Below, in pieces: positions 13,857 through 19,455 of a DNA stretch of 64,000 nucleotides. The stretch covers positions 96,001 through 160,000 of the forward strand of contig CAWAOD010000005.1 in NCBI GenBank assembly GCA_963783575.1, written 5' to 3'. This DNA is from an uncultured Spirochaetota bacterium (GTDB lineage Bacteria > Spirochaetota > Brevinematia > Brevinematales > JAOACQ01). Every line of letters begins with the position of its first letter. Within the stretch, counting starts at the first letter, position 1. The notes below the pieces were generated by a model. That model was not told the DNA's origin. It saw nothing but the letters and a program-made list of their open reading frames with translations, and did no database searches. The translations under genes were made by a program, and so were the position numbers.

Positions 13857-14131
13857 TTATAAGAAATTCTTGTGCAATTTTTCAAGAACTTTCCTGAAAA
13901 AACTCCATTCCTCTTCGGAGATTCCATCAATCGCTTTCTCAAATAGAACCTTTGTGATAGACTGGAATTCGGTAATAATCCCTTTCCCCTTTTCTGTCAG
14001 GGACAGAAAGCTTGAGCGGTAATCTGACTCGTTCTTTCTCTGCTGAACATAATCAAATTTCTCCAGCTTGGAAACCAGTGTTGTAACCGTCGAGCGTTCC
14101 CTGTTGATTTTATCGGTCACCTCCGACAGGG
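13857..14131 (-). pseudogene. MarR family regulator, 5' part removed at the IS21 left end
   Basis: TLSEVTDKINRERSTVTTLVSKLEK...LSLTEKG wHTH; homology stops at the IS terminus at 14132. Confidence 0.8.
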
Positions 14132-14246
14132 TGGAAATGATAAACTAATTTACCAGGGTAGCAATAAATGAAATTCCCATACCTGTCACAAACAGATTTC
14201 CCATAGAGAAGCTTGAAGATTACCTTTAATGAAAATTCATTAAAGG

Positions 14247-15809
14247 ATGGCAGGAATGGTGAAAAATATTATGTATCAGGACATAAAAAAACTGAAACTT
14301 TTGGGGAAAAGTAAAAATGGTGTATCCCGGGAACTGTCAATAGATATTAAGACAGTCCGGAAATATTGGACTATGAACGATGCTGAATACCAGAAAAGCC
14401 TGATGGAATTCTCTTTCCGTGAAAAAGAATTCGAAGGAATAAAAACAGATATATTGAAAGTATATGCAAAGAATGATTACATCCGGCTGAATATGTCTGC
14501 TTTGTATGACTATTTATTGGAGGTAAAAGGCAAACTACCGGCGAATGAAAATACGATGAGGAATTTCGTACATTACCTGATTGAAAGCGGGCAGCTTACC
14601 TTGAATGAAAAGCGACGGTATTACACAAAAGTGCCGGACATGCCATATGGAAAGCAGCTCCAGCTTGATTTCGGTCAATATACCGACAGATATGGCAGAA
14701 GGTATTACATATTTGCCGCGGTGTTATCCGCCAGTCGTTTTAAGTATGCGGCCCTCCAGGAGAGGCCATTCCGGACAGAAGACCTGATCAATCATCTGTT
14801 GGACTGTTTCGCATATATGGGCGGGATACCGCATGAACTTGTCATCGATCAGGACTGCACGATGGTTGCGAGTGAGAACTCAAGCGATATCATCTACACG
14901 AAAGACTTTCAGTATTTCATCGGGGAAATGGGTCTTAAAATGTATGTGTGCCGACCTGCTGACCCGGAAAGTAAGGGAAAGATTGAAAACGTAGTCAAAT
15001 TCATCAAGCACGGTTTCTTCTCAGTCCGGGAGTTCAACAGTTTAATGGAAGCGGAAGAAAGCCTGATGAAATGGCTGGAAAGAAAAGCCAACGGGAGAAT
15101 ATCCCAGGCTACAATGAAAATACCACTGATAGAGATTGAAACGGAAAGACCATATCTCCAATCTGTCAGGAATTCGATATTCCGTAAAGACAGGATAGGA
15201 GCAAGGGAAGAGCGCAGTGTAAGCGATAAATGCCGGATCGCAGTTGATGCAAGCCAGTATGATATTCCCGAAAAATACAGGAACGGTTCGGTGGACATCT
15301 ACAAGACGGGCAGTCGGCTTTTTGTCTTTGACAGGATAACGGGAGAGCAAATCGCCGAATACCGGCTTTCAGTGATTCCGGGGCAGATTGTAACCAACAG
15401 GGCAATGATCCGGGAAATGGGAAAGACTGTGCAGTTATTGAAAGAAGAAGTAAGCGGGTACTTTGATATTCCCGGCTGGAAGGATTTTCTTGAATGTAAT
15501 TTCAGGAAGTTCAATCGTTATGTAAGGGACCAATGTCTTTCCGGAAGAAAATACTTCAGGGACAAGATAATTGATACCGGGAAGCTTACACAAGCGATCT
15601 CAAACTGCCTGGAGAGTGATAGTTATTCCATGAAGGATTTGTGGGATAATTACCTGAACTGTTTTATAACAGAAAAGGCAGAAATACCCTTGAATGTAGA
15701 AAAGATTGTCAGGCCTTCAGTGAATCCTGAACACTATCTTGAAGTAGCTAAATCAGACATCGGGAAATACCAGAGTTTCTGTGACTCCATCGGGGGCCGG
15801 CAATGTTGA
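14247..15809 (+). CDS. istA: IS21 transposase IstA
   Basis: QLDFG, GGIPHELVIDQD, ESKGKIENVVKFIK DDE motifs. Confidence 0.93.
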   Translation: MAGMVKNIMYQDIKKLKLLGKSKNGVSRELSIDIKTVRKYWTMNDAEYQKSLMEFSFREKEFEGIKTDILKVYAKNDYIRLNMSALYDYLLEVKGKLPANENTMRNFVHYLIESGQLTLNEKRRYYTKVPDMPYGKQLQLDFGQYTDRYGRRYYIFAAVLSASRFKYAALQERPFRTEDLINHLLDCFAYMGGIPHELVIDQDCTMVASENSSDIIYTKDFQYFIGEMGLKMYVCRPADPESKGKIENVVKFIKHGFFSVREFNSLMEAEESLMKWLERKANGRISQATMKIPLIEIETERPYLQSVRNSIFRKDRIGAREERSVSDKCRIAVDASQYDIPEKYRNGSVDIYKTGSRLFVFDRITGEQIAEYRLSVIPGQIVTNRAMIREMGKTVQLLKEEVSGYFDIPGWKDFLECNFRKFNRYVRDQCLSGRKYFRDKIIDTGKLTQAISNCLESDSYSMKDLWDNYLNCFITEKAEIPLNVEKIVRPSVNPEHYLEVAKSDIGKYQSFCDSIGGRQC

Positions 15810-16552
15810 AGATAAGAGAACAAATCATAACTGCGCTTACAACTCTCGGGTTGAAGGGTATGATAAAACGGATTGATGAGGAAATTGGTGAGGCTGAAAA
15901 GGCAAAAGAGTCTTATCTGAGTTTTCTGCAGAGGCTGCTTTCTCTGGAATTGAATTATAGAGTGGAAAAACGTTTTCAGCGGAATATGGCAGGAGCACAC
16001 TTCCCGGTCCGCAAAGATGTGGAAGGTTTTAATTTTGAAAAAGTGAATGGAATATCTAAAATGGATGTTTCACAGCTATTGGATTTCTGCTGGATTGATA
16101 ATCATCATAACCTGTTGTTCTTTGGGTCTCCGGGGCTGGGGAAAACGCATCTGGCAATTAGTATCGGAATCCGGGCAGTTGAAAAGGGATATATTGTCTG
16201 CTTTGAAAGGATGACTACTCTCATTAAGTTTCTGAAAACGGCGGACATCCAGAGAAGCTCTGCTTTCAGGCTGAACCGGATGATGAAGTCACACTTATTA
16301 ATCATTGATGAGATAGGTTACACACCTATCGAAAAGAAGGAGGCAAATCTATTCTTTAGTCTTGTAAGTGAATTGTATGAAAAGACATCAATTGTGATAA
16401 CATCGAATAAGGGATTTCAGGATTGGGCTGAAATGATGGGAGACCCGATTATGACAACCGCTCTTCTGGATAGGCTTTTACATCATTCAAATATTTATAA
16501 CTTGAGCGGAGAATCTTACAGAATACAAAATTTGAATAAGGAGGTTGAGTAA
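15803..16552 (+). CDS. istB: IS21 helper ATPase IstB
   Basis: GSPGLGKTHLA Walker A, LLIIDEIGY, TALLDRLLHH, GESYR. Confidence 0.95.
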   Translation: MLKIREQIITALTTLGLKGMIKRIDEEIGEAEKAKESYLSFLQRLLSLELNYRVEKRFQRNMAGAHFPVRKDVEGFNFEKVNGISKMDVSQLLDFCWIDNHHNLLFFGSPGLGKTHLAISIGIRAVEKGYIVCFERMTTLIKFLKTADIQRSSAFRLNRMMKSHLLIIDEIGYTPIEKKEANLFFSLVSELYEKTSIVITSNKGFQDWAEMMGDPIMTTALLDRLLHHSNIYNLSGESYRIQNLNKEVE

Positions 16553-16570
16553 CCATTCTTTGCCTCCTCA

Positions 16571-16687
16571 CTATGGGAAATACTCACGTGGAAGGTATGG
16601 GGAAAACTCTTGTGAAGCATATGGGAAATACTCTTGTGGAAGGGGTGGGAAATTACCCGAGCGCAGATATGGGAAAAACTCTTGACA
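16571..16687 (+). repeat. Five subterminal transposase-binding repeats of the IS21 right end
   Basis: Imperfect (A)TGGGAAA(T/A)ACTC units about 24 bp apart; inverted TTCCCATA copies near 14171-14205. Confidence 0.75.
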
Positions 16688-16693
16688 TTTCCA

Positions 16694-16743
16694 AGGCGTA
16701 GCAAAGCGTAGCCGAGCACCACAGCGCATGTACGCTGTTAGCT
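16694..16743 (-). other. Truncated attC-like recombination site cut by IS21
   Basis: Minus strand AGCTAAC-AGCGTACATGCGCTGTGGTGC..., homologous to the start of the complete site at 18464-18312. Confidence 0.7.
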
Positions 16744-16797: not shown

Positions 16798-17250
16798 TTA
16801 ATACTTCCATTTTTTAAAATCAGTAATTATTTGTTGATATAATCTATTAGCAACTTTAGGAAGTTCTTTTTTAATTGCTTCTTGAGGTGGAGTTATAAAT
16901 TGTAAATCTCTTTTTGTCATATTATATAATGATTTTATTTCTTCCATTAAATATATAACTTTTTTAGAAAAATACGGATAATATTCTATAAATGAATATA
17001 ATTCTTTTCTACAATTATATATAAAATCAGAATAAACACTAGCATTATCAGGCCATGTAATACCTTCCAAACCTTCTACAAATATTAATAATTTTTTATA
17101 TGCATTAATTTTATCTTTATCATGTAATTTTATTATTTCTAAATTTTTTTGAGTAAATGAAGTAATAACTCCTCCAATGAATACACCCAATAGTGTAAAA
17201 AAACCAAAAATAATATTTTTATCAATTAATATATCCATATACATCTCCAT
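16798..17250 (-). CDS. Hypothetical cassette protein with N-terminal transmembrane helix
   Basis: 150-aa ORF, FGFFTLLGVFIGGVITSF, very AT-rich, lies between attC-like sites. Confidence 0.7.
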   Translation of the reverse strand: MEMYMDILIDKNIIFGFFTLLGVFIGGVITSFTQKNLEIIKLHDKDKINAYKKLLIFVEGLEGITWPDNASVYSDFIYNCRKELYSFIEYYPYFSKKVIYLMEEIKSLYNMTKRDLQFITPPQEAIKKELPKVANRLYQQIITDFKKWKY

Positions 17251-17279
17251 TCCTGAATAATTTTATTATAAAATGATAT

Positions 17280-18194
17280 TTATCTATTAATTTTTAGATC
17301 ATTAAAAGTATGTACATTATTTAAATCATAAAAATATATGGTTTTTAATGTTTTTTTAGAAGAATAGTAATCAGTGTATATCAATTTGTATTGAAATTTT
17401 AGTGACTTATCAAAATAGATATATTCAGTCTCTGTTGCACCAGGTAAAATGTTTATTTCATATAATCTATTATATGATATTGTAGAAGATTTTGTCAGAC
17501 CCTCAATCAGAAAAAACTGATTTTTAGGATTAATTTTAGTAATATATATGCTGTTCGTGTTTACAATTTTAAGTTTCATTTCCATATTATCTGAATAATC
17601 ATCAATTATATTACTCACAATGCTTATTGAGCTTAAAGTATTATAATTATTATTAATAGAATATAGATTAAATCTGTTATATAGGTCATAGCAAAAAATT
17701 GATAAACTGGAAATATATTTTGAATCTGGATATTGATTTTGCAATTCAATCACAGTATTTTCCAAATTAAAATAATCAATATATTTTATAATGTTTGTAG
17801 ATTTATCCAATATATCAAAAATAAAAAATAATTTAGATAGTAGAATATTGTTGGTTATTAGATTTAATCTATTTGTGTAAAGTGAATTTGAGGTAAAGTC
17901 TTTGTTAATATCTTTAAGAAATCCGCTGTAAAATGCAGTAATATACATAATATCATCAAGAATATTTGTATTATCAATATTATTATTTATAAATCCATTT
18001 ATTTCATAAAGGTTTAAGATATAATTACTGATATTACTAATTGTATCTATATCATTTATGGAAGTATTTGTAATTATAGAAAATAATTTCATTAAATTTG
18101 ATTCTAAAAAGTTTTTATTAATATCTCCAAAAATATCTGAACAAAATAGGGTTAATAAGATAATAATAATAGTTTTCATTATTCTTTTATACAT
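17280..18194 (-). CDS. Hypothetical secreted Asn/Ile-rich cassette protein
   Basis: AGGAGG RBS before MYKRIMKTIIIILLTLFC; long ORF in extremely AT-rich DNA. Confidence 0.7.
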   Translation of the reverse strand: MYKRIMKTIIIILLTLFCSDIFGDINKNFLESNLMKLFSIITNTSINDIDTISNISNYILNLYEINGFINNNIDNTNILDDIMYITAFYSGFLKDINKDFTSNSLYTNRLNLITNNILLSKLFFIFDILDKSTNIIKYIDYFNLENTVIELQNQYPDSKYISSLSIFCYDLYNRFNLYSINNNYNTLSSISIVSNIIDDYSDNMEMKLKIVNTNSIYITKINPKNQFFLIEGLTKSSTISYNRLYEINILPGATETEYIYFDKSLKFQYKLIYTDYYSSKKTLKTIYFYDLNNVHTFNDLKINR

Positions 18195-18311
18195 GTTATC
18201 CCTCCTGTATTTCAAATCACTAAATAAAAATAACGTTTTGTGTTTAATATCATTTCCAGTCCGCCACGATGGCGGACATTATTGTAATATTATAGCATTG
18301 CCAAGCTTTTC

Positions 18312-18464
18312 AGCTAACGTACATGTGTATGCGACGTTGCCAGGTCCGTAAGGACTGGCGTGAGCTTTGCCGCCGCAAAGCGAATGCCAGAGGGCAATGT
18401 GGCGAAGCCCGAGGAGCGCCCGCAGTTTACGAGGACGCACCGCAGCGCATACACAACGTTATGT
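18312..18464 (-). other. attC-like integron cassette recombination site (153 bp)
   Basis: Minus strand ACATAAC...GTTAGCT core sites; inner IR TGTGTATGCG/CGCATACACA; GC-rich multi-stem interior in an AT-rich context. Confidence 0.8.
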
Positions 18465-18545
18465 GCAGTGCTGGCGGTCGATTTTCATATAACCTTTTCT
18501 TTATCATATTTCATTTCTACATGAAAATTAATTATTGAAAATCGA

Positions 18546-18958
18546 GGCTTTAACCTGCCGCAATGTAATTTTAAATAAAATTTATAATAAAATAATGAAA
18601 ATTTTGACTATGACTTTGGTCACATTTTTATATCATTATATACAGTATAGAATAAAAACACAAAATATTTGAAAAAAAATGAAAAATAACCAGGCAAAAA
18701 TTTGCGTTGACTCTCCAATTTTGCTATCATACTAATCAGGAATTTGTCTCTGAAAACAGGCTTTCTCATCAAATTCCTGATTAGTATGACAATCATCTCA
18801 ATGATTGCTGGTTATTATTCATTTTTTCTCTTTTCCATTTGTGTTTTCTTATAAAAATGTAATTAATCTATCAAAATTTTCATTTTACCATAATTACATT
18901 GCGGGAGATCGTTTCATATATCTCCGATATATGATGCGTATCGTTACAGGTTAAAGCC
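18546..18958. repeat. Long imperfect inverted repeat (~410 nt) filling an ORF-less cassette; candidate structured RNA/ssDNA
   Basis: Colinear paired arms 18546-57/18947-58, 18558-70/18892-904, 18594-607/18871-84, 18622-32/18850-60 and a perfect 20-bp core 18727-46/18770-89. Confidence 0.85.
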
Positions 18959-18970
18959 AGCCAGCATTGC

Positions 18971-19042
18971 ATATAACTCGATATATACGCATTGCGTATA
19001 TTACTCTAATTTCGGAGTGATATGCGCACTATGTATATTACT
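18971..19042 (-). other. attI-like primary recombination site
   Basis: Minus-strand G|TTATAT core at 18977 with no attC hairpin; two 23-bp direct repeats (18983-19005, 19020-19042; 19/23 identical). Confidence 0.6.
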
Positions 19043-19125: not shown

Positions 19126-19155
19126 ATTATAGCATTTTAATTTATAGTTTGTCAA
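19126..19155 (-). promoter_or_regulatory. Sigma70 promoter directed into the cassette array (Pc-like)
   Basis: Minus strand TTGACA-18 bp-TATAAT with extended -10 TG. Confidence 0.7.

Positions 19156-19381: not shown

Positions 19382-19455
<74 letters not shown>

Follow-up and report, generated by a model that had tools for sequence, protein, structure and literature searches.

Organization of the cassette array

In the window, that is, the whole stretch of 64,000 nucleotides analysed, a cassette array on the minus strand starts at an attI-like site with repeats (18977-19035), whose crossover G|TT falls between 18977 and 18976. A Pc-like promoter, TTGACA-18-TATAAT with a TG (19126-19155, minus strand; 12/12 consensus match), is located ~150 nt upstream of the crossover, and a tRNA gene divergent from the array (19382-19455) was found ~230 nt upstream of this promoter. 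No integrase gene adjoins the attI of the window, and the array is integrase-less. The attI-like site shows a 92% match to a site just downstream of a broken integrase gene of the same genome (G000:C5:458195-458257), and promoter blocks related to the window Pc recur at other attI-like platforms of G000.

The first cassette behind this promoter contains no gene. It is a unit of 659 bp (18318-18976, minus strand) consisting of the cargo and an attC site of ~150 nt (18312-18464; R'' ~18464-18458, R' ~18318-18312), and it is present as a single copy in its genome. Taken alone, this attC forms its R-box pairs with a probability of 0.93-0.97. The GTT crossover and the R''/L''/L'/R' pairing of attC mark the unit as an integron cassette, and a homologue in genome G005 (see below) adds an attI with an integrase neighbourhood and differing array contexts. 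The first-pass annotation had described an ORF-less first cassette at 18465-18976. The lack of a credible ORF was borne out (the longest is 58 aa), but the claimed region turned out to lie inside the cassette, which extends with its attC from the crossover at 18977/18976 down to 18318.

The cassette ends are complementary at 16/18 positions. Parsing of G000 and G011 yielded 22 cassette-like units, although this census is incomplete, as the parser missed some attC sites. In 17 of them, 15-17 of 18 terminal bases were complementary, and the other five were probably mis-bounded. The outer 18-bp stem is therefore generic and not a special feature of this cassette.

The second cassette (16798-18215, minus strand) carries two ORFs (~304-311 aa and 150 aa) with no Pfam match, and its attC is cut by an IS21 element at ~16690. 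IS21 is a high-copy element here (window 14130-16694 and more than 10 other sites); two attC sites, at window 16690 and C9:127558, have a copy inserted in them, and an IS-end-like remnant was found inside an attC at C10:79041.

The cargo folds into a nested rod

The cargo forms a nested rod of 413 nt (18546-18958), recognized by its folding z, its genome ranking and its covariation with the G005 homologue (L011:1478-1863). The seven helices named in the first-pass annotation all sit where it placed them: 18546-57/18947-58, 18558-70/18892-904, 18594-607/18871-84, 18622-32/18850-60, 18655-64/18838-47, 18685-93/18808-16 and the apical stem 18727-46/18770-89, with 20 bp and a 23-nt loop. The apical stem and loop (18727-18789; stem of 24 bp in G005) include the conserved loop motif AAAACARGCTTTCT at ~18753-18766. 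The 3' side hairpin also exists; however, its true place is 18914-18934 (core), extending to about 18907-18942, rather than 18903-18925, and two more side hairpins (18478-18545 and 18790-18807) had been overlooked. The former lies by the terminal stem and has a 10-bp stem; in G005, this position is taken by a stem of 8 bp whose sequence is unrelated. One arm of the G005 counterpart of the 3' hairpin is the 9-mer repeat of the G005 attI (identical at L011:1810-1818, 1898-1906 and 1935-1943), and a related dyad is located upstream of the integrase gene in L089.

As the first-pass annotation had supposed, the region 18465-18976 folds far better than its shuffles, with z values from -15 to -18: -170.8 kcal/mol (z -17.5) for the plus strand as RNA, -175.3 kcal/mol (z -15.6) for the minus strand as RNA and -116.5 kcal/mol (z -18.3) for the minus strand as DNA, with 0/100 shuffles as good in each case. 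A genome-wide helix-chain scan ranked this rod as the strongest in the 4.9-Mb genome, with 99 nested perfect bp compared with 55 at the runner-up. When the interiors of 12 units of <=800 nt were folded against 8 shuffles per unit, the window cassette gave z -10.5 and the other 11 gave +1.8 to -4.9. In its circular form, the cassette is predicted to be a closed branched rod with 74% of bases paired.

The last result brings in a selfish structural cassette, in which the closed rod would protect an excised ssDNA circle or speed IntI recombination, possibly helped by the attI-like half-sites in the 3' hairpin. The paired fraction of the circle (67-75%), the location of both copies at attI and the attI repeat in the G005 hairpin arm are consistent with it. 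Against it, R-box pairing was the same with the native as with a shuffled interior (0.42 against 0.42-0.50, and 0.003 against 0.003-0.005) in an equilibrium model that ignores kinetics and loop size. Thus, the earlier suggestion that the structure modulates recombination received no support from this calculation. Furthermore, the cassette is single-copy in its own genome, while a weakly folded gene-less cassette occurs eight times in G011 loci. We regard this explanation as unlikely. A related candidate, a "lock" in which the rod sequesters the attC R box, is likewise unsupported, since interior shuffling leaves the R-box pairing unchanged.

A homologue in another genus and conservation of the fold

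One full homologue was found, in a genome of the same family but another genus (G005:C20, L011:1478-1863), with 69% identity over 342 nt (blastn, E 2e-27). It is also ORF-less and first in its array, directly after an intact tyrosine recombinase gene and attI, and the cassettes downstream of it differ from those in the window array. Its folding z values are -13.8/-10.8. Comparing the 128 aligned pairs of the window fold with G005, 61 are identical, 28 are changed on both sides and one on a single side, and the remaining 38 are not confidently paired in G005; the two folds thus have 90 pairs in common, a covariation signal that rests on two sequences. The helix 18546/18958 and the 5' side hairpin are retained in spite of almost unrelated sequences. 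Conservation extends to the unpaired columns, 63/94 of which are identical; the apical loop motif and TTGCG-N4-CTCTCCA are among them. In the same two genomes, the identity of the cassettes (64-69%) is below that of RNase P RNA (75%) and tmRNA (79%), that is, the structure is kept despite greater divergence.

Contigs of three DNA runs from three studies (X1-X3) partially cover the cargo. They contain pairing-compatible substitutions on different contigs (18815 T>A in X1 and X2, 18686 A>T in X3), and 18915 C>T in a DNA-run contig gives a T.G on the bottom strand. Together with the 28 double changes in the homologue, these contigs exclude a fold-back assembly artefact and make a recent inverted duplication unlikely, which agrees with the first-pass view of a selected structure and with its expectation of compensatory changes in homologues. 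An old, neutral inverted duplication with arms kept paired by template switching would account for changes in runs of 3-5 adjacent pairs and for helices that are nearly pure Watson-Crick. Nevertheless, we consider it very improbable: the positions of the large asymmetric loops and side hairpins have not shifted, motifs in unpaired stretches are conserved, and covariation links arms separated by 390 nt. The cassette resembles MITEs and other palindromic repeats in its terminal inverted repeats and fold-back, but it is single-copy and attI/attC-bounded, its terminal repeats are not conserved in sequence, and the sequence around it shows no target-site duplication.

No reading frame is common to the two cassettes: stops differ in all six frames, and several indels are not multiples of 3. 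A type I toxin-antitoxin cassette, i.e., a fold-back mRNA for a tiny hydrophobic peptide with an antisense RNA, was also considered. In both copies, the top strand has GGAGAG followed 13 nt on by TTG, which opens hydrophobic frames of 25 and 14 codons. However, the frame lengths differ, the peptides agree at 5/14 residues, the spacing is unfavourable, and hydrophobic peptides are expected by default from T-rich DNA, making this the least credible of the explanations weighed.

Based on the above results, the fold itself is probably the cargo of the cassette and acts either as single-stranded DNA or as RNA. Since the structure is conserved across genera, a cassette can have a nucleic-acid fold as its cargo. 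The literature already describes gene-less cassettes that carry promoters or an sRNA; no description of a cassette-long covarying rod was found in open-access main texts.

To find further copies, blastn was run against relatives (22/41 matching at E<=0.01) and against phylum genomes (12/401 at E<=1e-5); apart from self and G005, all matches were short AT-rich pieces, with follow-up scoring covering two candidates per genome. A covariance model built from the two sequences matched in 2/43 and 2/151 genomes and gave no further full copy. A three-motif pattern matched in 4/401 genomes, the two extra matches not folding. None of the 57 loci from a metagenome motif scan was alike beyond the motif. 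A GTDB motif scan gave 26 loci with one real match, L121, which is not a third copy because it is identical to L011. The viral scans returned 0, 2 (not folding) and 0 matches, and the plasmid and phage collections one short weak match each. The family is therefore rare in what was searched. No RNA run was among the listed sequencing-run carriers of the cassette, which has no bearing on expression.

Promoter-like motif inside the rod

A sigma-70-like motif overlooked in the first-pass functional reading, TTGCGT-17-TATCAT with a TG, is located at 18702-18730 on the plus strand, i.e., on the bottom strand of attC and antisense to Pc. Its G005 counterpart is TTGCGC-17-TAATAT, also with a TG. The motif, with its -10 at 18725, has the best promoter score conserved at aligned positions on either strand; 10/300 column shuffles reach this score, which was computed with assumed weights. 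In the ssDNA fold, it lies at the 5' arm junction just below the apical stem and is directed at the conserved loop. The -35 falls mostly in a side-hairpin loop and not in a duplex in both copies, and the -10 is part-open in the window fold and fully paired in G005. On the bottom strand, the search for conserved promoters gave none upstream of the rod. The bottom strand of attC is the recombinogenic one, according to a review (PMC8946536). The conservation of this antisense promoter-like motif points to a function at the DNA level.

Gene-less cassettes are common, with 13/63 in one oral survey (PMC6557892), and a promoter function has been the main explanation for them to date. In the Treponema (PMC6557892) and Vibrionaceae (bioRxiv 10.1101/2023.11.21.568050) studies, such promoter cassettes are likewise attC-bounded and non-coding, carry a promoter-like motif, sometimes in antisense, and can be first, one being documented in that position; the Treponema cassettes likewise belong to a spirochaete reverse-type integron. 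The window cassette shares with them the absence of a conserved ORF, its promoter side consisting of the predicted motif. It may thus be an ordinary promoter or attenuator cassette, whose conserved sigma-70-like motif or folded leader would tune the array or the integrase, the rod being secondary. We find this rather unlikely: ~30 bp suffices for a promoter, and the 90 pairs common to both folds, 28 of them changed on both sides, would be left unexplained. A cassette-long rod with compensatory change is the feature of the window cassette, and the words "hairpin", "inverted" and "secondary (structure)" do not occur in the main texts of the two studies.

RNA or single-stranded DNA

Folding and covariation are seen for the top strand as well (53 pairs the same, 27 changed on both sides, 4 on one side). 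The ratio of both-side to one-side changes in the cassette is thus 28:1 for the bottom strand or 27:4 for the top strand. For RNase P RNA from four genomes of the family, the same pipeline counted 116 changes on both sides against 14 on one side, and for tmRNA 57 against 46. Because RNase P RNA reaches 116:14, the ratios of 28:1 and 27:4 cannot identify the cassette fold as RNA or as DNA. The candidate rule that few G.U pairs and many transversions mean DNA was rejected by the same control (116:14; transversion share 58:58). The folding z is slightly better for the bottom strand in both copies, although the bias between strands is small, with a similar MFE for the top strand. Wobble pairs slightly favour the bottom strand, where a tandem G.T is conserved between the copies, and on the top strand several G.T pairs, conserved or variant, are replaced by C.A mismatches; a top-strand-only helix is also present. 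The GC skew on C5 gave no information on strand exposure. Such motifs are not reliably distinguishable computationally, according to PMC5737381.

We suggest, as the best though tentative explanation, that the cargo works as folded ssDNA on the bottom strand of attC, serving for priming or as a promoter in the manner of sso or Frpo. This would bring together the observed ORF-less anatomy, conserved pairing, bottom-strand promoter-like motif and conserved apical loop. Once single-stranded (in an excised circle, a replication gap or during transfer), the bottom strand would fold, and RNA polymerase would engage the -10/extended -10 on the 5' arm and copy the 3' arm from ~18779 into the loop. The RNA made in this way would be complementary to the bottom strand and could either prime synthesis of the absent top strand or initiate transcription in the sense direction of the array. 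In ordinary dsDNA, the same motif would give an antisense RNA from ~18737 towards attI.

The long imperfect hairpin, internal promoter, conserved loop and ssDNA stage are joined, to our knowledge, in one known class, sso/Frpo. The single-strand origins of rolling-circle plasmids and ICEs (ssoA/T/U/W, ICEBs1 sso1) and Frpo/ssi resemble the cassette in an imperfect nested hairpin of a few hundred nt, an embedded sigma-70-like promoter, a conserved loop and an ssDNA stage of the element. Of the sso consensus sequences RSB and CS-6, the latter, in the form used here, has no match in the apical loop, and a 5/6 look-alike coincides with the -35. Descriptions of sso elements mention promoters inside an imperfect hairpin and a conserved loop at which the primer ends (PMC8860593), and a function that depends on structure (PMC4595007). 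The cassette has an extensive imperfect hairpin with a promoter-like motif inside it and a conserved loop, and its layout matches the former description. In the part of PMC11541004 that defines Frpo, the -35 and -10 are paired with complementary regions of the fold. The -35 of the cassette is not in a duplex, and it therefore falls outside Frpo. Unlike these elements, the cassette is non-replicating, has no Rep or relaxase nearby and, the short weak matches above aside, has no sequence match in plasmid or phage collections.

A folded-ssDNA element is favoured by a structure kept at an identity below those of RNase P RNA and tmRNA, by a promoter-like motif on the recombinogenic strand aimed at the conserved loop while no conserved promoter precedes the rod there, and by the slightly better bottom-strand z with the conserved tandem G.T. 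On the other hand, the -35 hexamer has no complementary arm pairing in either fold, the -10 is fully paired in G005, promoter conservation is modest (10/300 shuffles, assumed weights), the strand bias is small, and the covariation ratio and transversion share match those of RNase P RNA. Two full copies were found, and a need for an sso is not established for a non-replicating cassette.

Nearly as likely is a structured non-coding RNA of ~500 nt with a long dsRNA-like rod, transcribed from Pc on the top strand. It would be a substrate of RNase III, a decoy for proteins or a defence RNA, and would possibly be antisense-controlled from the internal promoter. The consensus promoter 150 nt upstream, the first position of both copies, the folding and covariation of the top strand, the resemblance of this covariation to RNase P RNA and the conserved loops argue for it. 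The first position is 2/2 for the window and G005 copies, a count that does not establish enrichment; the 428-nt gene-less cassette of G011 is first once and internal seven times. The sRNA-Xcc1 cassette of Xanthomonas is a precedent for a cassette RNA and likewise has a non-coding function oriented against Pc. Unlike the window cassette, in which the fold spans the whole cargo, it also encodes symE. Conversely, the window cassette has no terminator-like site and no Rfam match near the gathering score (weak generic hairpin matches lie far below the cut-off), which places it in no known Rfam family, and several G.T pairs turn into C.A mismatches on the top strand.

Carrying the folded-ssDNA explanation further, the sole cargo may tentatively be seen, by analogy with sso, as an ssDNA origin or promoter that primes the second strand on an excised bottom-strand circle or activates downstream cassettes only while the array is single-stranded. 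If true, there are cassettes with their own conversion signal, which gives a handle on the single- or double-stranded state of free cassettes. Their ss or ds nature is undetermined according to a review (PMC8946536, Fig. 6 legend). The cassette measures 659 bp, exists in two natural variants and lends itself to clear-cut mutants of helices, loop and promoter, which makes both the ss-versus-ds and the RNA-versus-DNA questions directly testable.

Integron platforms of the genome and its relatives

G000 has about ten attI-like platforms at dispersed loci (C5:114976, 359003, 458245; C9:129770, 382291, 531760; C4:7079; C13:208480, 218513; C16:120153). The majority of them carry a Pc-like promoter, and together they represent an unusual multi-platform integron system. 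The sole IntI-like gene of G000 is broken and co-oriented with its own array (C5:457-458 kb), and such co-orientation is the reverse arrangement described for Treponema in PMC6557892. Very long attC sites of 240-245 nt with AT-rich terminal loops are located at G000:C5:458730-479350 and C10:74774-79230.

In G011 (L130, L133, L134), the 428-nt gene-less cassette occurs in eight copies of two variants, some in tandem, where assembly overlap is possible. A 395-nt gene-less cassette is first at two platforms, and a 295-nt one has a folding z of -4.9. The inner stem of the G011 gene-less cassettes starts with CGCA, as in the window cassette; their sequences are unrelated to it, and their folding is weaker. 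The cassette at G000:C10:79231 begins with the same 19 nt as the window cassette and has its own promoter-like sequence and a small ORF, which we presume to be a BrnT-type toxin. Two 16S rRNA copies with different scores (1428 and 1525 bits) are located at G000:C13:1424-2956 and 175374-176905, hinting at contamination or divergence in the assembly.
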